Shown one piece after another: positions 411 through 22,908 of a stretch of DNA of 25,033 nucleotides. This DNA comes from a bacterium. GTDB lineage: Bacteria > UBA6262 > WVXT01. Each line of letters starts with the position of its first letter. Positions within the stretch are counted from its first letter, which is position 1. Made by a program: the position numbers and the translations under genes. Location: assembly GCA_046759165.1 (NCBI GenBank), contig JBHIBS010000023.1, positions 1 to 25,033 of the forward strand, written 5' to 3'. The notes beneath the pieces are model-generated. The model was not told the origin of the DNA and did not search any database. It saw only the letters and a list, made by a program, of their open reading frames with translations.

Positions 411-896
411 CTACGTAAAAAATTTATTTGCTATTAAGCCAGCAATAGGCGGGAAGAAAAACGTGCTGGCAACACGAATGAGTGTAAATTTCCAGCCCAT
501 TATGCTCACTTCTATCGGCAAGCGAGTAACTGCCCATAACGACCATCCTGTCAAAAATGCTACCATAGTTCCTACACTGGCACCTGAACGCAAAAGCCCT
601 GCTGCAATCGGTAAACTGACATAGGGACCGCCTGGGGCCAAACTACCCGCTACTGTACCGATGAGTATACCTCGTATACCAGATTCTCTACCTATCCACT
701 TTGAAAGAAGTTCATGAGATACAAGAATCTGAACCATACCCGCTACTATAAACGCAAAAATCACTAATGGGAGAATCTGGATTGTCATGTTCATTGCTGA
801 TTTCAATCCCAGGACATGTTCTCCCCCTCCTCTATAATAACCAATAAAGACAAGAATAACTGCAAGAAGACCCATTATAAATGTGGGGATTACCAT
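411..896 (-). CDS. Small predicted permease (DUF318/ArsP-like half-size)
   Basis: 161 aa, several hydrophobic segments, PGGPYVSLPIAAGL motif typical of this permease family; AAGGGGG RBS. Confidence 0.7.
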   Translation of the reverse strand: MVIPTFIMGLLAVILVFIGYYRGGGEHVLGLKSAMNMTIQILPLVIFAFIVAGMVQILVSHELLSKWIGRESGIRGILIGTVAGSLAPGGPYVSLPIAAGLLRSGASVGTMVAFLTGWSLWAVTRLPIEVSIMGWKFTLIRVASTFFFPPIAGLIANKFFT

Positions 897-1157: not shown

Positions 1158-3782
1158 CTACATGTTCCTTTTGTATCTCTTCATTAATAGCGAATTGCTA
1201 ACTACAGAAACAGAGCTAAAAGACATGGCTGCGCCAGCAATAATAGGATTCAATAGAAACCCAGTAAACGGATAGAGCAACCCCGCTGCCACAGGAATGC
1301 CCACACTATTGTAGAAGAATGCCCAGAATAGATTCTGTCTTATCTTCTTCATTGTGTATCTTGATAAGTCCATAGACATTACCACATCTCTAAGATCGTC
1401 TTTAATGAGTACTATGTCCCCAGATTCAATGGCGACATCGGTGCCCGTGCCAATGGCAATACCAATGTCAGCCTGAGTAAGCGCAGGAGCATCGTTTATG
1501 CCATCACCAACCATGGCCACCTTCAAACCTTGCTGTTGAAGTTTCTTTATCTCGTTAGCTTTATCTTGTGGTAAAACCTCTGCTAAAACTTCCTTTATAC
1601 CCAATTGCCTGGCTATGGCTTCACCTGTCCTTCTGTTATCTCCTGTTATCATAACAACTTCTTTGCCAAATTCCTTGAGTGTCTTAATTGCCTGTTTTGC
1701 ATTTTCTTTTAAAGTATCAGCCACAGCCACTATTCCCATAACTGAATTGTCTACGGCGACAATCATCGCAGTTTTACCCTGTGTTTCTAAGTCCAAAAGA
1801 AACTTATCTACTTTTGACAAATCTATACTTCTCTCCCGCATCAATTTACTATTTCCTAATAGAATCATTCTATTCTGGTATTTCGCGCTAACCCCTCTTC
1901 CAGTTATAGAATCAAAAGCTTCTGGTTCAGGGATATCTATTCCTTTTGCTTTTGCCCCCTCAATTATTGCTTCCCCCAGGGGGTGCTCGGAATTCTTTTC
2001 TGCTATTGCCGCAAATCTCAACACATCGTTTTCACTCATCGTATCCAGCTTGATGACATCAGTTAATTCCGGCTTACCCTTAGTCAGAGTTCCGGTTTTG
2101 TCAAATATAATTGTATTTATATTACGAGCCAATTGAAGTGATTGAGCACTCCTAATCAAAATCCCATTCTGCGCCCCAATACCAGTTCCTACCATAACCG
2201 CTGTGGGCGTCGCTAAACCCAAAGCACAGGGACAGGCAATAATCAAGACAGCGATAGCGATAGTCAAGGCAAACACAAATCCCTGTCCAACCAGAAGCCA
2301 CATGGTAAAGGCAATTATTCCAATTAAAACTACTGCAGGAACAAAATAAGCAGAAATCTTATCTGCCAATTCTTGAATAGGGGCTTTGGAGCCCTGCGCT
2401 TCCTCAACAAGTCTTATGATCTGGGCTAAAGCTGTATCTTTGCCAACTTTTGTGGCTACAAACCTAAAAGAACCTGTCTTGTTAATTGTGGCGCCAATAA
2501 CTTCATTGCCTGGTGTCTTCTCCACCGGAATGGACTCGCCACTAATCATTGATTCATCTACACTGGAATGCCCATCAACTACTTTTCCATCTACAGGGAT
2601 TTTCTGTCCCGGCTTCATCAGAACAACATCACCAACAATGACTTCCTCTATTGGAATCTCTTTCTCCTGCTCATTCCTGATGACAATGGCAGTCTTGGCC
2701 TGCAACCCCAAAAGTTTCTTGATGGCTTCCGAAGTCTTTCCCTTGGCAATGGCTTCCAGCCACTTTCCCAAGAGGATGAACGCGATAAGAATCCCGGCTA
2801 CTTCATAATATAGATTTTCTATTCCGTATTTGGGACTACCCGACCATATCGCTATAGACACAAAAAGACTATAAACATATGCTGCACCCGTTCCCAGAGC
2901 CACTAAAGTATCCATATTGGCAGTTCTGGTTTTGATAACTGAACTAAAACCCTTAGTATAAAATTGGTAGCCTGCCATTATGATAGGAGTTGTAAGAAGA
3001 AATTGGATGAGAGCCATATTCCTTAGAATAGAATCCGAAAGCGACAAACCCAGGTGGGGTGCCATAGCAAAATATAGAAGTGGTATACCCAAACTTAACG
3101 AAATCCAAAACTTAATCTTCAGGCTTCTAATTTCTCTATGTCGTGCTTCTTTTTCGATATCGGGTGTAACTTCTTTCTCCTCAATTGGTGTATACCCTGC
3201 AGCTTTAATTGTTTCTTTTATTCTATCCTTAGTTAACAAAGAGGTATCAAATTGGATTTTTGCTCGCTCATTGACATAGAGTTCTTGCTTTGTAATTCCT
3301 TTAAGGCTATTTAATGCCCCTTTCACAGTGCTCAAACAATGGGGATTATCCATGCCAATAACTTTTAGGTTGAGCGTTGAGATTATCCCTCCCTCTCTTA
3401 TTGGCTTATATCCGGCCCTGGAAATAGCTTCTTCCATCTTCTCTCTTGTGACTTTGTTAGGGTCATACTCAATATGTGCCTTCTCAGAAACGAAATTTAC
3501 TTTCGCATCCGATACGCCATCAACCTTCTTTAAAGAATTTTCTATCGTAATCACGCAGGATGAACAATGCATGCCTGTAATCCCGATTGTCGTCTTTTCT
3601 TTTTTCTTTGAGGCAGCTTCAGTTTTTGATTCTGAAACTGGTTCCTCTTTCTCCACACCTAAAAATTTATCTCGACAAAGAGGACTACAGAAAAAATATT
3701 GTTTACCGTCTTTCTCTACCTTAATCGCTTTTTTCTCATCAACTTCCATTTTACAGATCGGGTCTATCGCCACCTTAATCAC
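1158..3782 (-). CDS. copA: Copper-translocating P1B-type ATPase with N-terminal YHS and two HMA domains
   Basis: DPIC...FCS YHS domain, GMHCSSC HMA, SGES, CPC, DKTGT phosphorylation site, [15 protein letters not shown] and M-x3-S Cu(I) motifs. Confidence 0.95.
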
Positions 3783-3791
3783 CTCATTCGC

Positions 3792-5246
3792 TTATACCAC
3801 TTCCTTAACTTTGCGCGTCCCCTTCTTTCTTACTCTTATATTCCTTGGTTTTGGATATTCACCAGTCCAGCAATAGAGACACAGCTTCTCCTTGGGGAGC
3901 CCAATGGCCTTGACCATGGCATCCACAGTCTGGTATCTAAGTGTGGTAACTTCTAAATCGTTAGCAATCCATTCCACCATCTTTTTGTATTCTTTAGAAT
4001 TATGGTCTACATATTTTGCCACATTCTCTAAATCTCTGCCTTCCAGGCTGCGAATGGCTCTTCGGGCAGCGAGTTCATGGATGCTCCGCGTGGAGAGATT
4101 AAACCTGCATGGAAACATCAAGGGCGGGCAGGCGGGCCTTATGTGAACCTCTCTGGCCCCGCTGTCCCACAACTTCTTTATGGTGAAGTTCCTAAGCTGA
4201 GTTCCCCTGACTATAGAGTCCTCGCATACTACAATCCTGTTGTCTTCAACTATCTCTCTGACAGGAATGAGCTTCATCTTGGCTATCAAATCTCGGGTCT
4301 CCTGCGAAGGAGGAGTATAGCTCCTCCCATATCCAGGCGTATACTTCACAAGAGGTCGCCTGTAAGGCTTCCCGGACTCCATGGCATATCCCACAGCGTG
4401 TGCGGTTCCTGAATCGGGAACCCCAGAGACTACATCTACTTCTATATCTCTGTCCCGTTTTGCCAGAAACCTTCCGCATCTCTCCCTCACTGTCTCCACA
4501 TTTATCCCCTCATAGCTTGAAGCGGGAAAGCCGGTATATATCCAGAGGAATGCGCAGATTTGATTCATATCCCCGCCTGGCTTCTTCTGCGCCAGGCCCT
4601 CCTCATTTATCAGAACTATCTCCCCGGGCTCGAAGTATTTCACTGCTTCGAACCCAATATTTGGGAACGCACTAGTCTCAGAAGTAACTGCCCAGGCATC
4701 CTGTCGCTTTCCAACTACGAGAGGGGTATATCCATACCTATCTCTGGCGGCATAGACTCCATCTTTGTTCAGCAATAAAAGTGAGCAGGAACCATCTATT
4801 GCATCGAACATCTTCTCTATACCCTCTATCAAATTGTTCCCCTGGCTGATCAACTTGGCTACGAGCTCAGTTACATTAACCACACCTTTGCTCACTTCAC
4901 TGAAGGATATTCCTTTTTCCAACAGCCCTCCCACTAATTCTTCGATATTTTCTAAGAGTCCATTGGTGACTATACAAAACGGACCGAACTTGGAGTTTAA
5001 ATAAATAGGCTGTTCATCAAAGGCGCTAATAACGCCAATACCCTTGTTGCCCTTCATACGCTTGAAATCTTGATAGAATTTTGACTTAAACTGATTCTGG
5101 CTTATGTCATGTATCTGGCGGGTGAAATCCTCTCCCAGCACTGCCATGCCCCCATATTCTGTCCCCAAATGCGAATGATAATCCGTTCCACAGAATAGAA
5201 TTTCTGCACAATCTCCCTTAGAAACTACTCCAAAAATCCCGCTCAT
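3792..5246 (-). CDS. purF: Amidophosphoribosyltransferase-like protein lacking the N-terminal catalytic Cys
   Basis: VPDSG, EDSIVRGT PRPP loop, four Fe-S-type Cys (ICAF, FPCRF, CLYC); N-terminus is MSGIFG instead of MCGIFG. Confidence 0.85.
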   Translation of the reverse strand: MSGIFGVVSKGDCAEILFCGTDYHSHLGTEYGGMAVLGEDFTRQIHDISQNQFKSKFYQDFKRMKGNKGIGVISAFDEQPIYLNSKFGPFCIVTNGLLENIEELVGGLLEKGISFSEVSKGVVNVTELVAKLISQGNNLIEGIEKMFDAIDGSCSLLLLNKDGVYAARDRYGYTPLVVGKRQDAWAVTSETSAFPNIGFEAVKYFEPGEIVLINEEGLAQKKPGGDMNQICAFLWIYTGFPASSYEGINVETVRERCGRFLAKRDRDIEVDVVSGVPDSGTAHAVGYAMESGKPYRRPLVKYTPGYGRSYTPPSQETRDLIAKMKLIPVREIVEDNRIVVCEDSIVRGTQLRNFTIKKLWDSGAREVHIRPACPPLMFPCRFNLSTRSIHELAARRAIRSLEGRDLENVAKYVDHNSKEYKKMVEWIANDLEVTTLRYQTVDAMVKAIGLPKEKLCLYCWTGEYPKPRNIRVRKKGTRKVKEVV

Positions 5247-5317
5247 CTTTTACCTCTGTTATATTTAGTTTCAAATTCTAAAACAATCAAAATCTGAAAT
5301 TTGTAATGTGTAATTTA

Positions 5318-8300
5318 CTATTTCACTTGTTTATGGTATTCCTGTAATGATTTCACAAAGGTCTTTGGTCTCTTAATCAAATTCTCGATTCCATTAACAG
5401 ATGCCTGTGCACCAGCAATAGTAGTTATGAGAGGTACACTATAAAGAATTGCATGGGATCTTATCTTTGCCTCATCCTCTCTGGTCACCTTGCCAGCAGG
5501 AGTGTTTATTATAAGATCTACCTTACCATCTTTTATTAAATCGATTATGTTAGGTCTCCCTTCGTGAAGTTTAGGCAAAGTTTCTACCTCTATGTCATTC
5601 CTCATAAGGGCGGCTGCTGTACCAGAAGTTGCCATAATTTTAAACCCAAGGTCAGTAAGTTTCTTGGCAATGAACATTATACTCCTCTTATCCTGGTTCT
5701 TCACACTTATAAATACATTCCCCTTTTTTGGCAACCTTTGTCCAGCAGCTATCTGGCTCTTCCCATAAGCTACACCAAATGTGGAATCTATTCCCATAAC
5801 CTCCCCCGTGGATTTCATCTCCGGCCCCAAGATTGCATCTACGCCTGGAAACCTTATGAAAGGAAATACAGACTCTTTTACTGCAACATGATCTATCTCC
5901 TTTTCCTTGGTAAATTCTAACTCTTGCAGGGTCTTTCCAAGCATTATCCTAGTTGATAGCTTTGCCAGAGGAACCCCTATTGCCTTGCTCACAAATGGAA
6001 TCGTTCTACTTGCCCTGGGATTTACCTCCAGGACATAGACCACATTATTCTTGATGGCGTACTGGATATTCAAAAGTCCCTTCACATTCAATTCCTTTGC
6101 CATAGCATAAGTATTTTTCTTTATAACTTCTATTATATCTTCACCTAAGGTATAGGGCGGAAGGACCATTGCACTATCACCAGAATGGATCCCTGCTTCT
6201 TCAATGTGCTCCATAACCCCACCTATCACGCACCTCTTGCCATCTGCTATTGCATCCACATCAACTTCTATAGCATCTTCTAAGAATTTGTCGATAAGAA
6301 TTGGATGTTCAGGAGATGCCTCTACTGCTTTTTTCATAAAATTGCTTAAGCCTTCCTCATCATAGACTATCTCCATTGCTCTACCACCCAGAACATAAGA
6401 AGGTCTTACCACCACTGGATATCCTATCCTGTTTGCAACCTTCTTTGCTCCTTCGAATGAGGTAGCTGTCCCGTTATCAGGCTGGATGAGTTTCAATTTC
6501 TTAAGCATCTGTTGAAATCTTTTTCTATCCTCTGCCCTGTCTATAGAATCAGGGCTTGTTCCTAAAATCTTCACTCCTGCTTTGGCCAATGGGACAGATA
6601 TATTTAGAGGAGTCTGGCCTCCAAATTGAACTATCACCCCGATGGGTTTTTCAATATCCACAATATTTAATATATCCTCAACTGTCAAAGGTTCAAAATA
6701 CAATTTGTCTGAAGTGTCATAATCTGTCGAAACAGTCTCTGGATTGCAATTTACCATAATGCTTTCAATGCCCTCTTCCTTTAAAGCATACGATGCATGA
6801 CAACAACAGTAATCAAACTCTATGCCCTGCCCGATTCTATTGGGTCCCCCTCCAAGGATAAGAACCTTCCTATTCCCGGATGGCTGGCTTTCATCCCTGG
6901 TCTCATATGTAGAATAGTAATATGGTCTCTCCGCTTTAAATTCTCCTCCGCAGGTATCTACCAATTTATAAACTCCTTTTATATTGCACCTTTTTCTATA
7001 GAATCTTACCTTTTTCTCCGTCGAATTTAGAAGATAGGCAAGCTGCATATCTGAGAAGCCGTACTTTTTCGCTTTCCTAAGCAACTCTGGTGGGATTTCA
7101 ATTTTATATTTTGCATTTTTACTTCTATATCTCTTTATCTTTTTTTCCAGTTCTATGATCTGTTTCATATTGTCTATAAACCACCTATCAATTTTTGATA
7201 ACTCATAAATCTCATCAACCGTTAGTCCAAGCTTGAGACCATATCTGATGAAAAATAGCCTCTCATCATTGGGAATTCTTATTTTTTCCTTTATTTCCTC
7301 AATCAAATCTTCTGACGTTGATCTTAATGCTCCATCCGTGATTCTGTCTTTTCCGTCTGAACCCAATCCAAATCTCCCTGTCTCAGTAGACCTTATTCCC
7401 TTCTGGAGGGCCTCCTTAAAGCTTCTACCAATAGACATTGCCTCACCAACTGCTTTCATAGATGTATTTATGACCCTTTGAACTTGAGGAAATTTTTCAA
7501 AAGTAAATCTACAGATTTTAAATACGCAGTAATCAACTGTAGGCTCAAAGAATGATGTTGTCTTTCCTGTAATCTGATTGAGAATCTCTGGAAGAGTTAA
7601 GCCAACAGCCAATTTTGTAGCAACCCTGGCAATGGGGAAACCGGTAGCTTTAGAAGCTAAAGCTGAACTTCTTGAAAGTCTTGGATTGACTTCGATAATC
7701 ACAATGTGTCCATTATCCGGGTTTTGGGCAAATTGAATATTCGCACCTCCTCCCGTTATGCCAATCTTTCTTATAATCTTTTTGGATAGATTCACAAACT
7801 GTGCGTATTCATCTCCAGTAACGCTCTGGGATGGTGCAACCACAATGCTATCACCAGTATGTACACCCATTGGGTCCACATTCTCCATAGAAGTAATCAT
7901 AATAACATTGTCAACGTAGTCCCTCATCACCTCATACTCTATCTCTTTCCACCCCAATACAGATTGTTCCACCAATACTTGTCCCACCGGGCTTATCTCA
8001 AGGCCCTTTATTAGAAACTCCTCCAATTCCTCTTTATTATAAGCAGTAGAACCACCGCTCCCACCCAAACAATACGCTGGCCTCAAAATCAACGGAAACC
8101 CTATCTCAAGGCCTATCCTCATGCCCTGTTCCAAATTTGTAGCAATTCCACTTTTGGGGACATCTATCCCTATTTCTTGCATTGCCTTCTTAAATAGCTC
8201 TCTATCTTCAGCCCTTGAAATAGCCCCAACATTGGCTCCTATAGACTCTACACCATACTTTTCCAGTACACCTTCTTTCATTAAAAAATAGGCCAGATTC

Positions 8301-8587
8301 AAGCCCGTCTGGCCGCCCAGTGTGGGCAGAATGGCATCGGGTCTCTCCTTCTTTATTATCTCCGTAACCGCTTCTACTGTGAGTGGCTCAATGTATGTCA
8401 CATCTGCCATACCAGGATCTGTCATAATAGTAGCTGGATTGCTATTTACAAGGATTGTAAAGTAACCTTCTTCTCTTAAAGCCTTACAGGCTTGAGAACC
8501 AGAATAGTCAAATTCACAGGCCTGGCCAATAACAATAGGGCCGGAGCCTATCATCAATATCTTATTTATATCTTTGCGCTTTGGCAT
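5318..8587 (-). CDS. carB: Carbamoyl-phosphate synthase large subunit
   Basis: 1089 aa, [17 protein letters not shown], two ATP-grasp halves (HTGDS/EVNPR and [14 protein letters not shown]), C-terminal MGS-like domain. Confidence 0.98.
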
Positions 8588-8609
8588 GCTGCATCCCCTT
8601 TTTCAATGA

Positions 8610-8648
8610 GCACATCACCCTACACCCAGTGTGCTGGGTGATAAGTGC
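8610..8648. repeat. carA-carB intergenic inverted repeat
   Basis: CACCCAG-tgtg-CTGGGTG (8623-8640) with an alternative arm ATCACCC (8614-8620) able to pair with GGGTGAT (8636-8642). Confidence 0.5.
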
Positions 8649-8652
8649 GGGG

Positions 8653-9741
8653 TCATTTGATTCCTGAAAATCTTCTAAATACTTCGTTTACCTCCTCAAA
8701 CCCAGGACTTACCGGATAGTACTGGGTGGAAATAAACCTTAAAGGGCCACTTTCCATCTCCTCAATTGAGTCATCATTAACATTTCGCAGGGTAATGTTA
8801 ATATCATTTCTACCCTTTATTGAGTTCTCATCCACAATAAATGAATGGTTCTGAACAGTGATATCCCCCTTATATGAAGAAGGTGACTTCACTGGATAGT
8901 TTACACCGTGATGACCTACTTTGAGTTTTCTTAGTCTGCCTCCTAAGGCAAGACAGATAATTTCATGTCCTAAGGAAATACCTAAGAGAGGAATTTTGCC
9001 CACGAGCCTCTTAACTAACTCCACAATTTTAGAAATTGCTTCATCTTCTTCTGGTCCACTGGAAATGATCAAGCCATCAGGATTCAATCCAAGAATCTTA
9101 TCTCTATTAGTATTATAGGGTAATAACGTAATATTGCATCCCAGACTCTTTAATTGTTTGAGAAAACTATTCAAGATCCCAAGGTCTAATATAACTATCT
9201 TTGGTCCTGAAGGATTACCTTTAATTTCTGTAGTCCTTTTTACAGAGATATTTCTTATAAAGTCCTTTCTCATGTCTTTTTTATAATTTTTTAACCTGTT
9301 AAGTAAGTGACTAATCTTTGCCTCCTTGCACTCGAGCGGCACTATGGTCGAAACTATTCCTAACATCTGTCCTCTATCTCGAATCTTGACAGCCAATGTC
9401 CTTGTATCGACCTCGCTTATAGCAACAAGGTGTTCCTTCTTAAGGAAATTGTTAAAACTGTCCTCTGCCTGCCAATTGGAATACATTTTACTTCCCTCTT
9501 CTATAATCAAGGCCTCTATCCAACATTTTTTGGAATCATAAAATTTTTTGGCTACACCGTAATTACCTATCAAGGGATAGGTGAAAACCAGGATTTTGCC
9601 CGCATTTGCCGGGTCGGTCATAATCTCCTGGTATCCAACAACCGCAGTATTCAAAACCACCTCTCCTATCCTTTCTCCGGCTACCCCTATTGGGACGCCC
9701 TCAAAGTAGCTACCATCCTCTAACACTAATATTCCTCTCAT
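8653..9741 (-). CDS. carA: Carbamoyl-phosphate synthase small subunit, glutaminase-dead variant
   Basis: GEVVLNT..GYQE..TDP, TYPLIGNYG, VDTRTL, GHHG.NYPV, QNH; nucleophile motif GISLGHE, C-terminal QYYPV. Start moved to ATG 9741 (MRGILVLEDG, GGGAG RBS); ORF track begins at 9765. Confidence 0.92.
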   Translation of the reverse strand: MRGILVLEDGSYFEGVPIGVAGERIGEVVLNTAVVGYQEIMTDPANAGKILVFTYPLIGNYGVAKKFYDSKKCWIEALIIEEGSKMYSNWQAEDSFNNFLKKEHLVAISEVDTRTLAVKIRDRGQMLGIVSTIVPLECKEAKISHLLNRLKNYKKDMRKDFIRNISVKRTTEIKGNPSGPKIVILDLGILNSFLKQLKSLGCNITLLPYNTNRDKILGLNPDGLIISSGPEEDEAISKIVELVKRLVGKIPLLGISLGHEIICLALGGRLRKLKVGHHGVNYPVKSPSSYKGDITVQNHSFIVDENSIKGRNDINITLRNVNDDSIEEMESGPLRFISTQYYPVSPGFEEVNEVFRRFSGIK

Positions 9742-9793
9742 AATCTTCTCCCATTGATATTCCATTCTTGCCCAACCAGCTACCCTATATTTT

Positions 9794-9822
9794 ATTATAC
9801 CATAATATTCAAATATATTTAA
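9794..9822 (-). promoter_or_regulatory. Extended -10 promoter for carA-carB-purF-copA
   Basis: Minus strand TG-G-TATAAT at 9802-9794; weak -35 (TTAAAT) 17 nt upstream. Confidence 0.55.
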
Positions 9823-10130
9823 GAGTTTTTATTCTATTATTTTTGCGGTCGATTAACATATGGGGTTGAACTTTCATGCCTGTTAAATAGGGCTCTTAGG
9901 TCAATAAGAAATCTTGTCGAATGAAGAATAGATTACAGAGAAACGGACCCTAAAGTTTACAGACTTCTGGTGCTATACAGAATAGAAAAGCAGCGCGCCA
10001 ACGCTCTTGCCCAAACAGCTAAGAAGCCTATTCGCCACAGGCTTGTGTTATAGATAGTCCAACCCAGAATTTGATAGATAATAGGATGTGTCTCTTTTTA
10101 AAAAATGGCGGGCTTTTCAGCAGTTGTGCC

Positions 10131-11003
10131 TCAGAAAGGCTCACTGAGCAAACCATATAGTTCCGGTCGGCGGTCTCTAAAGACGGGCGAGACGGCTCTC
10201 ATCTCAAGCAGGTGGTCATTACTAAATTCCGCAAAAAGAACTTCTTCTTCCCCCTCCTTCTCTGCATAGGCAAGAATCTCTCCGTCAGGTCCGGCTATGG
10301 CACTATGCCCATCGAAATCATGCCGACTATATTTGCCCACTGGATTGCATGCCATTGCGTAGACCCTGTTTGATATTGCATGCATCATCGAGAAGCATCG
10401 GAAGCGAGTGGGTATATAGGTCACTCTCTTGTGAGGAGAGGTTGGCTTTCCCCATGAATAATTGGAGCAAAGAATTTCCATGCCTTTCAAAGCCAATATT
10501 CGTGGTAGTTCGGGAAATAGGTTATCCCAGCACACGGTCATTCCGATGTTACCGATCTCCGTATGGTAAACTTCCAATGTATTACCTGGGTAGAAGTAGT
10601 GTTTTTCCTCATCAGGAATATGCAATTTGTGATGGATGCCCAGTATCTCTCCTCGAGGCCCGATCAACACTGATGAATTGTATATGGTGCCTGGTATCCG
10701 AGGATGAAGCTGAGCTAATCCCACCACAATGTGAGTTTGGTGTTTTTTAGCCAGCTTAGCGACAATATTGGTGGTATAGCCGGGAATCGGCTCTGCACAC
10801 TTCAGGAACTCCCGGCCGAAATCCTGGTCCATCGGCTGGACGTATCCCGTGTTGGCAAGTTCGGGAAAGAGTATCAGGTCTGCCGCCCGGTTATCAAAAA
10901 TATTCTCAATAAATTCCTTGATTTTAGAGGCGTTCTTCTTTGGCTGTAGACTGGCCACCTCCATTTGAACCAAGGATGTTTTAACTTTATCTTTCATTTC
11001 CAT
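10131..11003 (-). CDS. Carbon-nitrogen hydrolase (nitrilase superfamily)
   Basis: Glu-Lys-Cys triad motifs FPEL, HKLHIP, VCWD; C-terminal RDRRPELY. Confidence 0.9.
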   Translation of the reverse strand: MEMKDKVKTSLVQMEVASLQPKKNASKIKEFIENIFDNRAADLILFPELANTGYVQPMDQDFGREFLKCAEPIPGYTTNIVAKLAKKHQTHIVVGLAQLHPRIPGTIYNSSVLIGPRGEILGIHHKLHIPDEEKHYFYPGNTLEVYHTEIGNIGMTVCWDNLFPELPRILALKGMEILCSNYSWGKPTSPHKRVTYIPTRFRCFSMMHAISNRVYAMACNPVGKYSRHDFDGHSAIAGPDGEILAYAEKEGEEEVLFAEFSNDHLLEMRAVSPVFRDRRPELYGLLSEPF

Positions 11004-11010
11004 TACCTCT

Positions 11011-11919
11011 CTATTTCTGCTTGTGTTTGGCTAAATATCTGAAGGCACTAAGTGCCGCTTTAGCCCCTTCACCGGCTGCTACTATAATCTGTTTTTCAGC
11101 CACATCAGTAACATCACCTGCGGCAAAGATGGCCGGCATATTGGTCTCGTTGTGACAGTTTACCTTGATTTCACCCAGTTCATTCTTTTCTAACTGTTTA
11201 GCAAATTCAGAATTAGGAATAAGACCGATTTCTACAAAAACTCCTTGCACAGCCAGCGTTTCTTCCCTTTCTTGTCTTTTTATCTTAATTCCACTTACCA
11301 TCCTATCTCCAAGGACAGCGGTTACCCGTGTGCTGTTTAAGATAGAGACCTTTTTACTCTCACTGACTTTTCCCCTCATTATCGCATCTCCAGTGAGGGC
11401 TGAGGTGATATTGATAAGATAGATATGTTTGGCTATCTTTATCAATTGTAGCGCTGCATCCAAAGCAGAGTTCCCTCCACCAATAACTGCCACATCCTTT
11501 CCAGCAAATAAAGGACCATCGCAAGTAGCACAGTAAGTGAGGCCTCTATTTTTAAATCCTTTTTCCCCCGGCACACCAAGTTCCCTTGACCTCTTGCCAG
11601 AGGCAACTACCGCTGTTTTCGCTTCGTAGGTACCTTTGTCAGTCTTAACCCAGACTCCGTCGTCTTTTCTTCTGAGTTCTATTACTTCTTCATTCTCTCT
11701 TAACTCGATGCCATATTTTTGCATATGCTCCTCAAACTTACCTGCCAGCTCAGGGCCGGTGATGAACTGATAGCCAGTGTAATTCTCTATGTCTCCACTC
11801 AATGCCGCCTGCCCCCCGATATCTTTGGTAATAACTAAAAGGTTCATTTTCTTTCTGGCAGCGTAGACGCTGGCTGTTATACCTGCTGGTCCTGCCCCTA
11901 CAATAATTAAATCGAACAT
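11011..11919 (-). CDS. trxB: Thioredoxin-disulfide reductase (TrxB/AhpF C-terminal-like)
   Basis: GAGPAG FAD motif, CATC active site, GGGNSA NAD(P)H motif, FAAGD. Confidence 0.9.
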   Translation of the reverse strand: MFDLIIVGAGPAGITASVYAARKKMNLLVITKDIGGQAALSGDIENYTGYQFITGPELAGKFEEHMQKYGIELRENEEVIELRRKDDGVWVKTDKGTYEAKTAVVASGKRSRELGVPGEKGFKNRGLTYCATCDGPLFAGKDVAVIGGGNSALDAALQLIKIAKHIYLINITSALTGDAIMRGKVSESKKVSILNSTRVTAVLGDRMVSGIKIKRQEREETLAVQGVFVEIGLIPNSEFAKQLEKNELGEIKVNCHNETNMPAIFAAGDVTDVAEKQIIVAAGEGAKAALSAFRYLAKHKQK

Positions 11920-11941
11920 TTTCCTATTATCTCTAATGGGG

Positions 11942-12181
11942 TTATAACCCCAATGCCTTTCTTATCCTCTCTTTGTCAAAACCCACTATAATTTCGCCTT
12001 CAATATCTATTACAGGCACAGCCATTTGCGCCGATTTCTGAACCATCTCTTGGGCTTTTTCCCGGTCACTAGAGACATCGATATCCTCAAAATCAATCTT
12101 GTTGTCCCTTAGGAAATTCTTGGCCATCATGCAAAACGGGCAAGTGGGGGTACTGTAGACTATGACTTTTTTGTCCACCAT
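11942..12181 (-). CDS. Glutaredoxin-like protein (NrdH/YruB type)
   Basis: CPFC active site, VPVI cis-Pro motif, IVGFD; ATG 12181 preceded by GAGGTG. Confidence 0.9.
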   Translation of the reverse strand: MVDKKVIVYSTPTCPFCMMAKNFLRDNKIDFEDIDVSSDREKAQEMVQKSAQMAVPVIDIEGEIIVGFDKERIRKALGL

Positions 12182-12197
12182 AGTCACCTCTTTTAGA

Positions 12198-12674
12198 TTA
12201 CAGGGTCTCCTTTAAATCGAACAACTGTCTTAGATGGTTTTGCTCTTCTAAAATAAGCTGATTAACTATTTTGTGGTCATATTCTGGCACTACCTTCTTC
12301 ATCCCTTCATAGAAAAGGATCGAATCTTTCTCAAATCCTATACCGAGATCGATAGCTTCTTTATCGCTTCTTATTCTTTTGGCTATTTCCTCGCCTTTAT
12401 CCTTCTGGGTAAATACATAGGCCCTTGCCAGCGCATTCATATATGCAAAATATTCCCCGGGATACGACTCTGGCGGTACATATTTGTGCACCGAATCTAA
12501 TATCTTTTGAAAAACAGTTATGTGTTTTTCTTCTTCGCCTGCCAAATATTTGAACGTGTCTTTAGCTTTTTGATTTTTTGATTGCTTAGCCAACGTGTTG
12601 TAGAAATCTCTACCATTCTTTTCAATTTGAATTCCCAATTCCACTATTTCGCTTCCTGCAAATATGTTTACCAT
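12198..12674 (-). CDS. Ferritin-like (rubrerythrin-family) diiron protein without rubredoxin domain
   Basis: Paired E...EEKH and E...EEQNH diiron motifs; AAGGAGG RBS. Confidence 0.85.
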   Translation of the reverse strand: MVNIFAGSEIVELGIQIEKNGRDFYNTLAKQSKNQKAKDTFKYLAGEEEKHITVFQKILDSVHKYVPPESYPGEYFAYMNALARAYVFTQKDKGEEIAKRIRSDKEAIDLGIGFEKDSILFYEGMKKVVPEYDHKIVNQLILEEQNHLRQLFDLKETL

Positions 12675-12706
12675 CTCTTCCCTCCTTCAACAACCCAACA
12701 CTAATT

Positions 12707-12847
12707 TTATTGAAAAGACTTGTGAGTAAACCCAAGAGTGTGATCAATGAAATGCCCTGTGCTTCTGGCTCCTTCCAGAACCTTATCCAGTAGAATATCT
12801 GTATTGCCACCTATTCGCGGGCTACCATTTATCCCTAATACTTTCAC
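12707..12847 (-). pseudogene. Truncated flavodoxin-family (iron-sulfur flavoprotein/FMN reductase) gene
   Basis: Hand translation from GTG 12847: MKVLGINGSPRIGGNTDILLDKVLEGARSTG then unrelated residues and stop after 46 aa; GSPRxxGNT is the FMN-phosphate loop of this family. Confidence 0.8.
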
Positions 12848-12850
12848 TTC

Positions 12851-12976
12851 TTAACCTTCTATTTTTTCCATGGGTTGCCCGCAACAAACAAGTTCACCAC
12901 CGCCCACTTTTGTTACAGTGACTTCATTACCACATACATTACATCTATACTTTTCCCCTACTTTTTCTACGGCCAT
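12851..12976 (-). CDS. Desulforedoxin (stand-alone FeS4 domain)
   Basis: Not in ORF track. [41 protein letters not shown] (41 aa), CxxC...CC motif, GAGGAG RBS. Confidence 0.92.
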
Positions 12977-13033
12977 ATGATATCTCCTCTCATAATCTCA
13001 ATTATTATATTTTTGATTATATCCCCCATCACT

Positions 13034-13678
13034 CTAGTGTATTAAATTCTTCAAATTCATTATATCGTCTATAATAAAATCTGGCTTTGCCTTGATTATA
13101 TCCTCCTTCTTGCCTATTCCATAAGTAACGCCACATGTAATTATACCAGCCCTCTTACCGGCTACTATATCTAAATCCATATCACCGACTATTATAGCTT
13201 CTTCTTTATTTGCATTAAGCCTGTGCATTGACATATCTAAAGGACATGAAGAAGGTTTCATACAACCTATGTCATCTCCTCCTACAATGTCTTCGAAATA
13301 ATCATATATACCTAACGTCTTTAGTGTAAGCAGAGCAAATTCATAATTTCTATTAGTTACAATCACCTTTTTCTTACCCTTAAAATATTCCAAAATTTCC
13401 TTCACGTTTGGGTAGAGAACAGAATTATCTGTGGAATGTTTTTTATAGTATTCTTCAAACGCGGATAGGGCTTTCTTAAGAAGAACTTCCTCCTTGTTAC
13501 CTAACGATTTTCTTATCAAGCCCTCTACACCTGTGCCTATATAAGAACTTATTTCTGATATACTTTTCTCTTTAAGCCCAATTTTTTTCAAAGTAAAATT
13601 AACAGCATTGGCTATGTCATCTCTTGAGTCAACCAGTGTGCCATCTAAATCAAAAATAATAAGGTCTATGTATTTCAT
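13034..13678 (-). CDS. HAD-family phosphatase (Gph/PpaX-like)
   Basis: FDLDGTLVDS motif I, VTN motif II, KP motif III, GDxxxD motif IV. Confidence 0.9.
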   Translation of the reverse strand: MKYIDLIIFDLDGTLVDSRDDIANAVNFTLKKIGLKEKSISEISSYIGTGVEGLIRKSLGNKEEVLLKKALSAFEEYYKKHSTDNSVLYPNVKEILEYFKGKKKVIVTNRNYEFALLTLKTLGIYDYFEDIVGGDDIGCMKPSSCPLDMSMHRLNANKEEAIIVGDMDLDIVAGKRAGIITCGVTYGIGKKEDIIKAKPDFIIDDIMNLKNLIH

Positions 13679-13684
13679 CCGTTA

Positions 13685-14398
13685 TCAATATCCTACAAAA
13701 TTTTCTATTTTGATTTTATCTTTTTGAATTCTTAATTTACTTTTTAGAATATTTATTAAACTCTCTACCATCCCTGGAGGTCCACAGATATAAAAGGTTC
13801 TTTCTATATAATCCGGTATCTCTTCTTTTATCACGGTATCATCTATATAGCCCGTTCTGCCTTTCCAAGTTTTTCTATCTATATCTGGGGAGGTTAAGGT
13901 GTAGACTATCCGCAGATTCTTATTGACTGACTGCATATTATCTAAGTCCTGTCTGAATATAATATCTTCTTCTCTGTTATTGCCATACAGTAACACCATG
14001 TCTGGTGGCAACATCGAGTCTGTGGCAAACTTGCATATGCTCCTTATGGGAGTTATGCCAATGCCCCCTGAAAGAAAGGCAATTTTTTCATACTCACCTT
14101 CAAATGTGAAAGACCCATACGGCATCTTCAATTTTGCCCAATCGCCAAGTTTTAATCCATTTAAGGCCTTTGAAAATTCACTTTCAGTAATTCTTTTGGT
14201 AAATTCTACATATCCTTTCTCAGTGGGTGAGTTTGAAAAAGAAAAATGTTTTGTCCTCTCTGTCCCGTCAATCTTTATTGTAACAAAAAAGAATTGCCCC
14301 GGTTTAAAATCCACATCTCCTTTTATGCTAAACCGGAAGCTCTTGACGTTATGGGTTCTTTGTACTATATCTATTACCTCTGTTTCAAATTCAATCAT
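13685..14398 (-). CDS. FAD/NAD(P)H-dependent oxidoreductase, FNR-like fold
   Basis: FKPGQF, HFSFSNSP, GGIGITP, YICGPPGM, terminal ENF. Confidence 0.88.
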   Translation of the reverse strand: MIEFETEVIDIVQRTHNVKSFRFSIKGDVDFKPGQFFFVTIKIDGTERTKHFSFSNSPTEKGYVEFTKRITESEFSKALNGLKLGDWAKLKMPYGSFTFEGEYEKIAFLSGGIGITPIRSICKFATDSMLPPDMVLLYGNNREEDIIFRQDLDNMQSVNKNLRIVYTLTSPDIDRKTWKGRTGYIDDTVIKEEIPDYIERTFYICGPPGMVESLINILKSKLRIQKDKIKIENFVGY

Positions 14399-14403
14399 TA
14401 TCT

Positions 14404-14913
14404 CTACTCGGTTAGTATTATATGGTCTGACTCTATCTCCGTTAAGGCTTTAAAGGACTCCTTTATTTCTTTCTCCGGGACTCGATTTCTTGCTTCTGTG
14501 TAGAATTTTACTGCCCTTTTTTCTCTCCTGTTGGCCTCTTCTATATTCGCTCGATCAGAATCAACTGCTTTATCCAATCCTACTTTTGAATCTGACTTCT
14601 CTATGTTTAGATGTTTGCATATCGCTGAGGCGTGTTCTCTCTCCACCTTTGATAAACCTTTAAACATACTTGAAACATAGACGTCTTTGCTTTTCTCAAA
14701 TATGGCTTTATAAAAATTTGTATTATCTATCTCCAGTTCCAACGCCTTCCTCAAATTCCTCTTACTTATGTCTGACAAAGATTCACTCTGTATCAATTTC
14801 CATTCTTTTGCTAAGACAAAATAATTCTCATGAGCGCCACAAAAAGGACAACTCTTGGGCTTCTCTTTTCCTATATAGACCTCTCCACAAATCCGGCAGC
14901 GATATACTTTCAT
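14404..14913 (-). CDS. Reverse-rubrerythrin-like protein (rubredoxin domain + ferritin-like domain)
   Basis: CRICG...CPFCG followed by E..EREH and E..ESDH; ATG 14913 has AAGGAG RBS 8 nt upstream. Confidence 0.85.
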   Translation of the reverse strand: MKVYRCRICGEVYIGKEKPKSCPFCGAHENYFVLAKEWKLIQSESLSDISKRNLRKALELEIDNTNFYKAIFEKSKDVYVSSMFKGLSKVEREHASAICKHLNIEKSDSKVGLDKAVDSDRANIEEANRREKRAVKFYTEARNRVPEKEIKESFKALTEIESDHIILTE

Positions 14914-14996
14914 ATCGTTCACTCCTTTCTAATATTTGTCATCTGTCCATTCGACAAGTTGCATATAAAGCTGACAAGTTATGTCTTCATTTCAAC

Positions 14997-15575
14997 TCAG
15001 TAATTTTCGCAAAGAAGCTCGTAGAATCCTTGGGGATGGGCACACGCTGGACATTCTTCGGGTGCTTCTTTTCCCTCATGGACATACCCACAATTCCGAC
15101 ATTTCCATTTAACCACCGTATCCTTTTTGAATACCTTACCCTCTTTTACATTCTTAAGCAACTTTCTATATCGTATTTCATGCTGTTCTTCTACTTCTGC
15201 TATTTCCTTAAATTGACGGGCTGTCTCTTCAAAGCCTTCCTGGCGCGCTACTTCTTCTGCCTCTTTGTAAAGTTTTGTCCATTCAAGGTTCTCTCCGGCT
15301 GCAGCTGCTTTCAGATTTGCTGCTGTGTCTTCTATCACGCCAGCTGGATAGGAGGCTGTAATTTCTACATCTCCGCCTTCTAAGAGTATAAAAAACCTCT
15401 TGGCGTGCTCTTTTTCATTATCAGCAGTCTCTAAAAATATTGCCGCTATCTGCTCATAGCCCGCCTTTCTTGCCACACTTGCAAAATAAGTATAGCGATT
15501 TCTTGCCTGCGATTCTCCGGCAAAAGATGCCAACAGATTCTTTTCCGTTTTGGTTCCTTTTATAGACTTTCCCAT
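14997..15575 (-). CDS. rbr: Rubrerythrin
   Basis: AGESQARNRY, EKEH, EEQHE diiron motifs and C-terminal CRNCG...CPAC. Confidence 0.96.
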   Translation of the reverse strand: MGKSIKGTKTEKNLLASFAGESQARNRYTYFASVARKAGYEQIAAIFLETADNEKEHAKRFFILLEGGDVEITASYPAGVIEDTAANLKAAAAGENLEWTKLYKEAEEVARQEGFEETARQFKEIAEVEEQHEIRYRKLLKNVKEGKVFKKDTVVKWKCRNCGYVHEGKEAPEECPACAHPQGFYELLCENY

Positions 15576-15604
15576 GATTCAACCTCCTTCCAGGAGACTT
15601 AGAC

Positions 15605-16195
15605 TTAGGAAAATGGTAACTTCTCAAAAGTCATTTTTTCAGCACCGCGACTGACCATTTCTTCTATAGCCTCTTCAGAATCTTTCGGCTTTATATTAAC
15701 GCCTTTAATAGCATCTATTAATAATTTAACTTTAAAGCCAAATTTTAAAGCATCCAAAACTGACGATTTAACGCAATAATCCGTAGCCAGACCGCCAACG
15801 AACGTTTCGTTTACTCCGAGAGTCTTCAATAGTTTGAAAAATTCAGTTCCATTGGAATCAACGGCTTGAAAAGCTGAATAGCTGTCCTTATCAGGATCCA
15901 TCCCCTTGGATAAGATTATTATCCCCTTAGGCAATTCTAAATCTGGATGGAACCTGGCTCCCCTGGTATTCTGTATACAGTGCTTTGGCCAGGGACCACC
16001 GAACTGTTTAAAGTGCTTGGTCTCCTTGGGATGCCAATCTCTTGAGACAAAAATTGGCAACTTTTTCCTCAAGAAAATCTTTATATATTTATTCAGCACG
16101 GAGATTATTCTATCGCCTTCTGGTACAGCCAGGGCCCCACCTGGACAGAAATCGTTCTGCACATCTACTATCAAGAGTGCTTTTTCTTGTTTCAT
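15605..16195 (-). CDS. pncA: Nicotinamidase/pyrazinamidase
   Basis: VDVQNDF, DWHP, WPKHC, SKG, GLATDYCV; start placed at ATG 16195 (GAGGAG RBS). Confidence 0.92.
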   Translation of the reverse strand: MKQEKALLIVDVQNDFCPGGALAVPEGDRIISVLNKYIKIFLRKKLPIFVSRDWHPKETKHFKQFGGPWPKHCIQNTRGARFHPDLELPKGIIILSKGMDPDKDSYSAFQAVDSNGTEFFKLLKTLGVNETFVGGLATDYCVKSSVLDALKFGFKVKLLIDAIKGVNIKPKDSEEAIEEMVSRGAEKMTFEKLPFS

Positions 16196-16233
16196 GGCTC
16201 CTCGCCAATGCATTAAAGAACTAATTGGAGTAT

Positions 16234-16569
16234 TTATCCCCACTTACCCTTCCCTATATGGACTTCTATCTCAGCCTTAATGAATTGACTCAATAGTTTT
16301 GCCTCATCCCTTGCCCTCGTAAAAATAACTGAACACCCCGGGTCTAAATTATCCTGGATACCTGCCTCAGCAATAGAATGCATCTGGTCTAATACAGCTG
16401 CCAATCCCATATGGAGTTGATTTGTGCATCTTGCCCTATCAACAAGTTTTGCTTTATCATCTGTTAATCTTACAAACTTATCCTTTGTTGCGCCACAGCG
16501 AGGACATTTATCCGGCGCATTTTCACCGTCGAAGACGTAATTACATACACCACACTTAAACTTCATCAT
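16234..16569 (-). CDS. Rubredoxin-like domain protein with helical C-terminal domain
   Basis: CGVC...CPRC N-terminus; DNLDPGC and [14 protein letters not shown]-terminus; AGGAGG RBS. Confidence 0.8.
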
Positions 16570-16628
16570 TTTTCGCCTCCTGTACCATTAAATCCTCAAA
16601 ACATCTCCATACTTTAGGTTCTATCTGT

Positions 16629-16787
16629 TCAAACCCTTTCAAACATATCCTTCCCCACACCACATTCAGGACAGACCCAACTGTCAGGCAAATCCTCAAA
16701 GGCTGTGCCAGGGTTTATCCCATTATCTGGATCGCCAATTTGGGGGTCATAGATATACCCGCAGACCGTGCAACGATATTTTGCCAT
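16629..16787 (-). CDS. Rubredoxin
   Basis: Not in ORF track. [52 protein letters not shown] (52 aa). Confidence 0.97.
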
Positions 16788-16806
16788 ACTCTAAATTTTT
16801 GCTTTG

Positions 16807-17991
16807 CTATAGTTTTTTTACAAAATCTCTTCCATATTCATAGCACTGTTTGGTTTCATTTTCATCCGGAACATATCTAATAGCAAGGGATGACTGAACA
16901 ATTTCTATCCCTGCCTCCTTTAGGATATTTTCAATGCTCTTTACTGCTCCTCCCGCCCAGCCATATGAGCCAAATACACAAGCAACTCTATTCTTGGGTC
17001 TCAAGCCTTTTAGGAATCCTAAAAATCCAGCAATTGCAGGAAGCATATCATTATCATGGGTTGAGGAACCAATAATATAACCTTTACTATCGAGCATCTC
17101 TTTGATTACCTCGGTGCGCTCGGACAAGGCTATATCGAAGAGTTTTAGCTCAACTTGAGAATCGATTATCCCTTCAGCTATCTTTCTTGCCATCTTCTCG
17201 GTCGCGCCCCACATCGTCTCATAGACGACCACAACTTTTGGTTTTGTTTCGTTCTTCGCCCAGGATAGATATGCGTTTATTATTCTTTCAGGGTCTTTAC
17301 GCCAGATAATCCCATGACTGGGGGCAATCATCATCAGGGGAATATTTAACTTTTGAATCTCTTCGATCTTTTTCAAAACCAAGGAGCTGAACGGCCAAAG
17401 AATATTTCCATAATACTTTGCTGCCTCATCCATGAGCACAGATTCATCAACCTCGCCGTCAAACCTTTGTGAAGTTGCATAATGCTGGCCAAAGGCATCG
17501 TTCGGCAAAAGGATTTGGTCTTCAATTAGATAACTGAACATACTATCTGGCCAGTGAAGCATTGGGGCCTCAATAAATGTTAGAGTTCTCTTGCCTAATT
17601 TTAATTTGTCGCCTGTCTTTACTACTTGGAAATCCCAGTTGCCATAGTAATGTTTATACAGTCCCTCTTTACATTTTTCAGTGCCAAAAACTTTTGCCTT
17701 TGGGGAGAGTTTAAGTATTTCTGGAAGCGCTCCAGAGTGGTCTATTTCTATGTGGTTGGCAATAATATAGTTTATTTTTTCGGGTGGGATAATCTGGTGT
17801 ATATTCTCAATCATCTCCTCTGCATACCGCCCATAGACAGTGTCTACTAGAGCTATCTTATCATCCAAAATCAGATAGGCATTATAGGTAGTCCCTCTCC
17901 TTGTCTCATAGGTGTGGCCATGGAAGTTTCTCACATTCCAATCAATGACGCCTACCCAATAAATATCCGGAAGAATTTTTGCACTAGACAT
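16807..17991 (-). CDS. fprA: Flavodiiron protein (class A O2/NO reductase)
   Basis: HIEIDH, HWPD, NDAFG, PSHG diiron ligands and flavodoxin domain TMWGAT / FGSYGW. Confidence 0.95.
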   Translation of the reverse strand: MSSAKILPDIYWVGVIDWNVRNFHGHTYETRRGTTYNAYLILDDKIALVDTVYGRYAEEMIENIHQIIPPEKINYIIANHIEIDHSGALPEILKLSPKAKVFGTEKCKEGLYKHYYGNWDFQVVKTGDKLKLGKRTLTFIEAPMLHWPDSMFSYLIEDQILLPNDAFGQHYATSQRFDGEVDESVLMDEAAKYYGNILWPFSSLVLKKIEEIQKLNIPLMMIAPSHGIIWRKDPERIINAYLSWAKNETKPKVVVVYETMWGATEKMARKIAEGIIDSQVELKLFDIALSERTEVIKEMLDSKGYIIGSSTHDNDMLPAIAGFLGFLKGLRPKNRVACVFGSYGWAGGAVKSIENILKEAGIEIVQSSLAIRYVPDENETKQCYEYGRDFVKKL

Positions 17992-18049
17992 TGCATCTCT
18001 ATCCTTTCTAAATGCTTCTCTTTTTTTAATAATACTTTCCTTAAATTTT

Positions 18050-18526
18050 TTATTTTAACTTTTGAGCAATCCCGGTTACTCTCTTACCTAATTCTTTAGC
18101 AATCTTCAAGTCGGTTTCTGTTGGTGGTTGGTCTGCTAAGTGCCCCACTACAACTGTAGGCCCGTAAGGTGTTCCTCCTTTTTTGGTTTCTATCGCTTCT
18201 TTTACACTGTAAGGAATGCCTACAATTATTGCTCCATGATGGATTAAGGTAAACATCATAGAAATAAGGGTTGTTTCCTGCCCTCCGTGTAAGGATCCAG
18301 TGCAGCAGAATACGCCTGGGGGCTTGTTGACAAGAGTTCCTTTCTGCATCTCTTTTGCTTTCTTTATTCTCTCATTAGAATCAATAATACTTTGGTGGAG
18401 TAATTCCGGAACTGTATGTAAGATGGCTTCGCCTCCTTCTTCTTCGATACCCCGACAGACTCCCTTTGCCATCAAAAAAGTATTTCCAAGCATGCTTGTA
18501 AATAAAACCATAACTTTGGGCTTCAC
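18050..18526 (-). pseudogene. wrbA: WrbA-type NAD(P)H:quinone oxidoreductase with in-frame internal deletion
   Basis: SMLGNT, VPEL, HGGQETT, GGTPYG motifs present; central segment with G-T/S-P-T-R-F-G is absent (EMQK joins GTLVNK); 158 aa. Confidence 0.75.
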
Positions 18527-18582
18527 AACCTCTATCTCCTTTCCTTTATCTTACCGTCTATTGACGGGCATTGAAACTTATT

Positions 18583-21104: not shown

Positions 21105-21126
21105 TACTAATTTCTCTCCAAATTTT

Positions 21127-22083: not shown

Positions 22084-22159
22084 TTCTCACTTCTTCTTCA
22101 TCCTATAAAGAAATCTATATACGTTGTCAAAGGTGAGACCAATCCGGAAAATAAGAATA

Positions 22160-22678: not shown

Positions 22679-22852
22679 CCTGCCTTCTCCTTTATCGATA
22701 AATTTTGCATGCTCCTTCAAGAATGAGAACAACAGAACAATCAAATATCCTCAGCGGAAATAACCAGTGCCTTACTTACTTTGATCTTTTTCACCAAAGA
22801 CAGTTACTCTTTTTAAAGCAGCTCTTTCCACATTCTTTTTAATGTTCTGGTC

Positions 22853-22902: not shown

Positions 22903-22908
22903 TTTGAA

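Follow-up and report, generated by a model that had tools for sequence, protein, structure and literature searches.

PurF is the archetypal N-terminal nucleophile (Ntn) amidotransferase. When Cys1 of Escherichia coli PurF is changed to Ser or Ala, glutamine use is lost and ammonia use is retained (PMC3261824; this and the other papers are cited for their available passages). The same source notes Mlab_0150 of Methanocorpusculum labreanum, a PurF paralogue with Ser for Cys, assigns it no function and describes it as having arisen by recent duplication of the purF of this archaeon. In human carbamoyl-phosphate synthase (CPS) 1, Ser replaces the catalytic Cys and a Gln at the position of E. coli Gly293 blocks the old tunnel (PMC4655335). 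According to textbooks and to a 2021 paper (PMC8121099), all bacterial CPSs so far characterised are glutamine-dependent; from fitness data, the orphan CarB2 (BT3866) of Bacteroides thetaiotaomicron is proposed in that paper to use ammonium directly, and the idea of alternative enzymes depending on ammonium supply is in print for this protein. PyrJ (DUF1846) of Streptococcus pneumoniae is an ammonia-only CTP synthase (bioRxiv 10.1101/2024.09.24.614635). Here, we describe a bacterial carA-carB-purF operon in which the glutaminase sites of both CarA and PurF have been erased. It lies in a 25,033-nt stretch of DNA (contig JBHIBS010000023.1, GTDB lineage UBA6262; the whole stretch is called the window), in the genome of an uncultured anaerobe that we label G000.

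Coding in the window is almost wholly on the minus strand, as judged by a scan for open reading frames (ORFs), and the three genes are co-oriented on that strand with spacers of 65 and 71 nt. The original prediction, made from the letters of the window, had described three co-oriented full-length genes with these gaps, a Cys-to-Ser change plus loss of partner residues in both CarA and PurF, intact ATP-grasp and phosphoribosyltransferase (PRTase) motifs, and a likeness to the Cys-to-Ser change of mammalian CPS I. The gene structure is confirmed by the ORFs and translations, the residue losses by alignment to E. coli CarA and to Bacillus subtilis PurF (1ao0) and by the relatives of each protein, and the two ATP-grasp halves of CarB by Pfam; the likeness to CPS I agrees with the Ser of human CPS1 (PMC4655335). 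Below, the two families are called Cys-less CarA and Cys-less PurF.

The window's Cys-less CarA has the two domains of a CPS small subunit, CPSase_sm_chain (PF00988) and a class I glutamine amidotransferase (GATase) domain (PF00117), and at 337.7 bits it passes TIGR01368, the model for glutamine-hydrolysing CarA (cut-off 307.35). Its top matches in the PDB are E. coli C269S mutant entries (1c30/1c3o). At the Cys269-His353-Glu355 triad (E. coli numbering) the residues are Ser, Tyr and either a deletion or Val: GICLGHQ reads GISLGHE, and QGHPEASPGPHD reads QYYP-VSPGFEE, with His353 changed to Tyr and Glu355 deleted or replaced. Pro360 and His361 are also changed, to Phe and Glu. In a family set of 121 sequences (the 120 best homologues and the query), the nucleophile Cys is absent throughout. 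The position is mostly Ser, else Ala, Gly, Gln or Thr, and since it varies in this way the Ser is not catalytic. The His353 position is Tyr in 120 of the 121, and the Gly293 position is Val (96), Leu (13), Ala (7) or another residue (5) and never Gly.

These features invite comparison with vertebrate CPS I (5DOU/5DOT), which Cys-less CarA matches at E 4.4e-39 (5dot). In both, the Cys is replaced and a bulkier residue stands at the Gly293 position, where it closes the former tunnel in CPS I and presumably does so in Cys-less CarA. Unlike CPS I, which is one fused chain needing N-acetylglutamate, CarA and CarB are encoded by separate genes, and Cys-less CarA has in addition lost His353 and Glu355 and has a varied nucleophile position. 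CPS I uses free ammonia, and the CarA-CarB pair probably does the same. Its origin is bacterial and independent, so that, if ammonia-fed, it would parallel the way in which CPS I evolved.

Cys-less PurF matches B. subtilis PurF over residues 3-394 (E 1e-57) and shares with it (1AO0/1GPH) the two-domain layout, the four [4Fe-4S] cysteines and the phosphoribosyl pyrophosphate (PRPP) loop. Unlike that enzyme, it has neither the nucleophile nor the residues that bind glutamine (Arg26, Arg73 and Asp127): CGVFG reads MSGIFG (Cys1 to Ser), QHRGQE reads SHLGTE (Arg26 to Leu), the HVRYATAGG stretch with Arg73 is deleted along with the whole Arg73-Tyr74 loop, and Asp127 is replaced. There is also a C-terminal insertion of ~18 aa. 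Asn101/Gly102 and the PDSG motif are kept, and the PRPP loop reads CEDSIVRGT where 1ao0 has VDDSIVRGT. The protein scores 221.5 bits against TIGR01134 (cut-off 350), compared with 557.6 bits for the other PurF of G000. Amongst 197 family members, the Cys1 position is Ser in 194 and Asn in three, never Cys, and the Arg26 position is Leu in 196. The oxyanion-hole Asn101 position is less constant (Asn 162, Ser 22, Asp 5, Thr 4), with Gly102 invariant. All four Fe-S cysteines and the DSIVRGT of the PRPP loop are each kept in 196-197 of the 197, the loop being preceded by Glu (191) or Asp (6).

We estimated selection from pairwise dN/dS between each window gene and eight relatives, which gave 0.04-0.37 over all comparisons. 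The GATase-like half of CarA gave 0.09-0.28 and CarB 0.04-0.11. For PurF, the whole gene gave 0.05-0.12 and the N-domain 0.06-0.14, as low as the PRTase domain. The original prediction had named substitutions private to this genome with dN/dS near 1 as the mark of simple decay; none were seen, the dead domains giving 0.06-0.28. The erased glutaminase sites are best read as a family-wide feature under purifying selection, not as decay.

CarB is complete: both ATP-grasp halves are present, as are an oligomerisation domain and an allosteric domain of the MGS-like kind, and the protein scores far above the cut-offs of NF003671 (1627.4 bits; cut-off 599) and TIGR01369 (1488.7 bits; cut-off 1027). 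No other full-length CarB was found in G000. In human CPS1, Cys648 is named as part of a conserved ammonia-tunnel gate (PMC4655335). As in E. coli CPS (1JDB, 1BXR, 1C30), there are two subunits in the same gene order, and residues 1-341 of CarB are collinear with E. coli numbering (N-half E 3.6e-238). Unlike E. coli CPS, the small-subunit triad is erased, and every one of 28 distinct CarBs that partner Cys-less CarA has Thr, Val and Val at positions 232, 249 and 265, where E. coli and 10 of 10 CarBs that partner a canonical CarA have Cys, Thr and Arg. The two groups also differ in a block at residues 264-270. By our own numbering, E. coli Cys232 is presumably the equivalent of human Cys648, an equivalence that is absent from the CPS1 passages (PMC4655335). 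In the E. coli enzyme, betaArg265, alphaPro360 and alphaHis361 form a wall of the ammonia tunnel.

On metagenome contigs, Cys-less carA is always followed by carB. Sixteen such carA-carB loci have at least 1.5 kb of downstream room, and in 11 of them Cys-less purF lies within 2 kb. Otherwise, the pair is followed by pyrK-pyrD (L127), by canonical purF (L126) or by an unrelated ORF and then glnA-gltB (L128/L129). The co-location of the two Cys-less families, which the original prediction had proposed to search for, is thus recurrent: frequent, not obligatory. Seen from Cys-less purF (80 loci), the link is rare. Cys-less carA and carB are upstream in two loci, and a contig-edge CarB of the type paired with Cys-less CarA is present in one. 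A solo CarB is nearby in three (L028, L047, L067), in L047 with a DUF1846 (PyrJ-family) gene between carB and purF. Canonical purF is upstream in 19, with purM between in 18; where these carry a taxon label, it is Planctomycetota. Cys-less PurF is best described as a broad family of its own, of which the three-gene operon is one recurrent arrangement.

The row of canonical purF, purM and Cys-less purF continues with a gene for a conserved 346-aa hydrophobic protein in L023 and 17 similar loci. We considered this protein as a general partner of Cys-less PurF and rejected it; it belongs to no Pfam family and has no homologue in G000.

The original prediction had called for a search for canonical carA, purF and glnA elsewhere in the genome. 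All three are on another contig of G000, C3, which carries purF with Cys1 (557.6 bits), carA with an intact triad (537.9 bits) and another glnA. Given these canonical copies, the dead pair is therefore an isoenzyme set in G000. The C3 genes form one long co-oriented nitrogen cluster which runs, in gene-strand order, orf521, carA, half carB, guaA, purQ, purL, hisH, hisF, purF and pyrG, and later a glutamine-type nadE, a class I GATase, amt, glnB, glnA and a class II GATase gene. In B. thetaiotaomicron, canonical carAB lies within the 'high-affinity ammonium' locus (HAA locus) and CarB2 is needed when ammonium is present or plentiful (PMC8121099). The C3 cluster resembles this low-ammonium HAA locus, and the two-regime layout, the window operon versus the amt-glnB-glnA cluster of C3, is like that of the CarB2 system. 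CarB2 has no small subunit of any kind, whereas the window operon retains a dead CarA under selection.

The C3 cluster also holds pieces resembling glutamate synthase (GOGAT). Its canonical carA is followed only by the N-terminal half of carB (554 aa). Six of the phylum's 12 genomes (G000 and G001-G005) share this pairing of canonical carA with a half carB of ~550 aa, a separate C-terminal half being found only in G001. Half carB genes also occur in metagenome loci that hold Cys-less carA and a full carB (L126, L128/L129).

The phylum of G000 comprises 12 species genomes and its family nine, in the taxonomy of the tool used. Cys-less CarA with a full CarB is present in nine of the 12; Cys-less PurF is present in seven, including G000, at 84-89% identity, with a fragment in an eighth. 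Five of these genomes, G006-G010, belong to a sister genus. For G009 (96% complete) and G010 (93%), no CarA, PurF or CarB was found outside the glutaminase-less operon. In G008 (92%), a CarA-like fragment of 42 residues on a different contig is all that was found besides Cys-less CarA, and canonical purF was not found. In the less complete metagenome-assembled genomes (MAGs) G006 and G007, canonical carA and purF were not found. Each of the five has one CarB, that of the operon, and all five have purD, pyrB, a second match resembling ornithine transcarbamylase, and glnA; purM is present in four (not G010).

Contigs syntenic with C3 are present in G008 (C64, L159), G009 (C51) and G010 (C46, L158). 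The order is guaA-purL-hisF-pyrG in G008 and G009, with gaps of 49, 140 and 57 nt in G009, and orf521-purL-hisF-pyrG in G010, where that contig has no guaA match. Because these neighbours are tightly packed, canonical purF and carA, together with purQ and hisH, are genuinely missing at this site. Furthermore, purQ and hisH were not found anywhere in G006-G010. The sister-genus PurL (777 aa) is 49% identical to that of G000 and HisF is 65% identical; GuaA and PyrG of G009 retain their catalytic Cys. Loss of glutaminase subunits in the sister genus may thus extend further.

Similar gene contents recur in other phyla. The closed Omnitrophota chromosome G013 has CarB and no CarA, and two Cys-less PurFs (61% and 78% identical to that of the window) and no canonical PurF; one of the two genes overlaps the beginning of purM. 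Two further closed chromosomes, G012 and G015, have CarB without a CarA of any kind. These solo CarBs next to Cys-less PurF in other phyla, those of the three genomes and of L028, L047 and L067, resemble CarB2 in layout. Of 151 Omnitrophota genomes sampled, 69 contain a match of the Cys-less PurF type, which is the sole match in 11; the two matches of G013 are both of this type. An Elusimicrobia MAG (G016) has a canonical carA-carB-purF row plus a second row of carB, one other gene and Cys-less purF. In the sister genomes, and for PurF in G013, only the dead forms were found together with later pathway genes, which argues that, where no canonical copy is found, the glutaminase-less forms must, on gene content, be able to carry the pathway alone.

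We propose that Cys-less CarA and CarB probably form an ammonia-dependent CPS with a pseudo-glutaminase, and that Cys-less PurF is probably an ammonia-dependent PRPP amidotransferase. CarA would be kept only as a structural, CPS I-like pseudo-glutaminase, and CarB would convert free NH3, bicarbonate and two ATP into carbamoyl phosphate for arginine and pyrimidines. The Ntn domain of PurF would be unable to bind or split glutamine, and free NH3 would reach the intact PRTase site to give phosphoribosylamine, the first purine intermediate. In G000, the dead pair would work beside the canonical glutamine-dependent set of the amt-glnB-glnA cluster, the latter presumably serving at low ammonium. We infer the use of NH3, its route of entry, the regulation by ammonium supply and the saving of ATP. 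The original prediction had reached a free-ammonia interpretation partly because nucleophile mutants can still use ammonia, as is stated for Ser and Ala at Cys1 of E. coli PurF (PMC3261824). The comparative tests that it had asked for (canonical copies, dN/dS and co-location) all came out in its favour.

Several observations weigh against this proposal. The absences in the sister genomes are drawn from MAGs of 83-96% completeness, one of which (G008) has the CarA-like fragment. Amongst the 69 Omnitrophota with Cys-less PurF, 57 have a second match that is of canonical type among the matches listed. The residues that discriminate the two CarB clades are not significantly enriched in the tunnel, taking in 3 of 15 tunnel positions versus 51 of ~441 columns. 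Cys-less PurF is 73-97% identical across phyla, compared with ~53% identity to the window CarB for the solo CarBs beside it (L028, L047, L067), a degree of conservation that seems to exceed the needs of a simple isoenzyme. Lastly, within the PurF N-domain, Ser2 is near-invariant (194/197) and the Arg26 region is replaced by a DYHSHLGT block in which His24 is kept in 195 of 197, Leu27 in 196 and the other six residues in all. Given this conservation, the N-domain is constrained beyond being an open hole.

One explanation for the constraint is that the N-domain has been re-tooled, with Ser2, perhaps together with Asp22, His24 and His26, hydrolysing another amide or nitrogen donor and the NH3 being channelled to PRPP. 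Ser-type Ntn hydrolases exist, and the retention of Ser2, the essentially invariant DYHSHLGT, the invariant Gly102 and a dN/dS as low as that of the PRTase domain would all fit. However, three members have Asn instead of Ser2, the oxyanion-hole position varies, the whole Arg73-Tyr74 loop is deleted, and the gene neighbourhoods yield no candidate substrate; we consider this reading improbable. It is similarly unlikely that the N-domain is a new active or gating site, which would hydrolyse another nitrogen donor or capture or gate NH3/NH4+ at low concentration, within a lineage-wide programme, shared with CarA-CarB, of ammonia-only amidotransferases without PurQ and HisH.

Alternatively, a separate protein could deliver the nitrogen: either the CN-hydrolase encoded upstream of the operon, serving as a glutaminase of the nitrilase type in the manner of glutamine-dependent NadE, or the canonical C3 CarA, docking onto the full-length CarB. 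A CN-hydrolase gene is upstream of Cys-less carA in the window and in some close relatives such as L019, L100, L102, L107, L109-L111, L113 and L117, and the canonical CarA of G000 is paired only with a half-size CarB. However, the CN-hydrolase is missing from the close loci L101, L104, L105, L108 and L115 and from all of the distant L120-L131, is separated from carA in the window by a terminator-like site and ~365 nt, and scores above no NCBIfam cut-off (the best model, N-carbamoylputrescine amidase, gives 152 bits against a cut-off of 410). Its variable presence led us to reject it as an obligatory partner. As for canonical CarA, G009 and G010 show none, and the CarB residues co-vary with Cys-less CarA. 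Delivery by a partner is thus also a doubtful explanation.

Less likely still, the Cys-less proteins might be non-catalytic regulators or scaffolds, with phosphoribosylamine made by another route. Extreme conservation is typical of interaction hubs, and 18 or 19 of the 80 Cys-less purF loci have canonical purF-purM directly alongside, in Planctomycetota where labelled. On the other hand, the PRPP and catalytic-loop residues of Cys-less PurF are invariant, and no other PurF-type gene was found in G008, G009, G010 and the closed G013, all of which have later purine genes; the ammonia-fed CPS proposed above already includes a scaffold role for CarA. Recent pseudogenes in decay, for which nothing speaks beyond the lost catalytic residues, can be dismissed as already refuted by the full-length frames, the low dN/dS values in all comparisons and the hundreds of conserved homologues in several phyla.

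Table 1. Positions of the operon, its neighbours and the loci compared with it (window coordinates unless a contig or locus is named)
Feature	Position	Strand	Basis or remark
Cys-less carA (CPS small-subunit homologue, erased glutaminase triad)	8653..9741	-	ORF; Pfam; TIGR01368; alignment to E. coli CarA
carB (full-length CPS large subunit)	5318..8587	-	1089 aa; Pfam; NF003671; TIGR01369
Cys-less purF (PurF-type PRPP amidotransferase homologue, B. subtilis Fe-S type)	3792..5246	-	484 aa; alignment to 1ao0
Operon untranslated leader or promoter region	9742..10130	-	Intergenic; terminator-like hairpin inside
Terminator-like hairpin	10005-9992		Ends the CN-hydrolase gene
CN-hydrolase (nitrilase superfamily)	10131-11003		Upstream of carA; below every NCBIfam cut-off
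Copper-type P1B ATPase	1158-3782		YHS and HMA domains
ArsP-like permease	411-896		After the P1B ATPase
Oxygen/redox defence block	11011-23298		Upstream of the operon
158-aa ORF	18050-18526		No Pfam match
Nitrogen cluster of G000 (loci L153, L154)	C3:1-25400		One long co-oriented cluster
N-terminal-half carB of G000 (L013)	C3:21043-22707		After canonical carA
C3-syntenic genes of G009 (C51)	L155:8198-14782		guaA-purL-hisF-pyrG
Cys-less purF of G013, one copy (L152)	C1:275790-277193
Cys-less purF of G013, other copy	C1:1256379-1257800
Canonical purF, purM, Cys-less purF, 346-aa protein	L023:7339-12569		In row

The features of the window are collected in Table 1. Cys-less carA has an alternative start, an in-frame ATG at 9765; the database copy begins at Met9, which is the start listed. 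No Rfam match was found anywhere in the window at E <= 0.1, which gives no sign of a riboswitch or leader RNA. A promoter scan gave 21 sites against 16.1 +/- 3.9 in shuffled sequence, with no convincing promoter.

Downstream, the P1B ATPase gene starts 9 nt past the purF stop and is followed by the permease gene; neither has an evident functional tie to the operon, and both are neighbours again in L100, L107 and L115. Upstream, the dense redox block encodes a thioredoxin-reductase-like protein, a glutaredoxin, four rubrerythrin-type proteins, an FAD/NAD oxidoreductase, a flavodiiron protein, a DJ-1/PfpI protein and a desulfoferrodoxin. Its proximal part (haloacid dehalogenase (HAD)-type protein, rubrerythrin, glutaredoxin and thioredoxin reductase) is kept upstream of Cys-less carA in many related loci (L100-L117). 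The 158-aa ORF lies between 2-oxoacid:ferredoxin oxidoreductase genes and the flavodiiron protein gene.

The concept of feeding such enzymes with ammonia is known from CPS I, from PurF Cys1 mutants, from orphan CarB2 and from PyrJ. PyrJ shares with the enzymes proposed here the idea that an ammonia-dependent enzyme replaces a glutamine amidotransferase in making nucleotides; its fold is unrelated. We considered it as a third member of the set in the family of G000 and rejected it, since a DUF1846 gene was found in none of the nine genomes, which use a normal PyrG with its Cys. Mlab_0150 is like Cys-less PurF in having Ser at the nucleophile position. Searches of the literature, supplements excluded, turned up no account of a bacterial CarA whose triad is erased, nor of a natural Cys-less PurF family, save the single archaeal paralogue Mlab_0150 (PMC3261824). 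What is new is the presence of both families in one operon, in a very small phylum other than Omnitrophota; the canonical counterpart cluster in the same genome; and a sister lineage that appears to be without four glutaminase functions at once, purQ and hisH being the other two.

There are, then, natural, widespread and selected versions of both enzymes without glutaminase chemistry, and in some genomes they are the sole copies found. If the ammonia-dependent reading is true, anaerobes in ammonium-rich, energy-poor habitats would bypass glutamine synthetase at the entry points to arginine, pyrimidines and purines and would save one ATP per nitrogen. The automatic names 'glutamine-hydrolyzing carbamoyl-phosphate synthase small subunit' and 'amidophosphoribosyltransferase' would then mislead metabolic models, and G000, with both regimes in one genome, would be a ready system in which to study how ammonium supply selects between enzyme sets.

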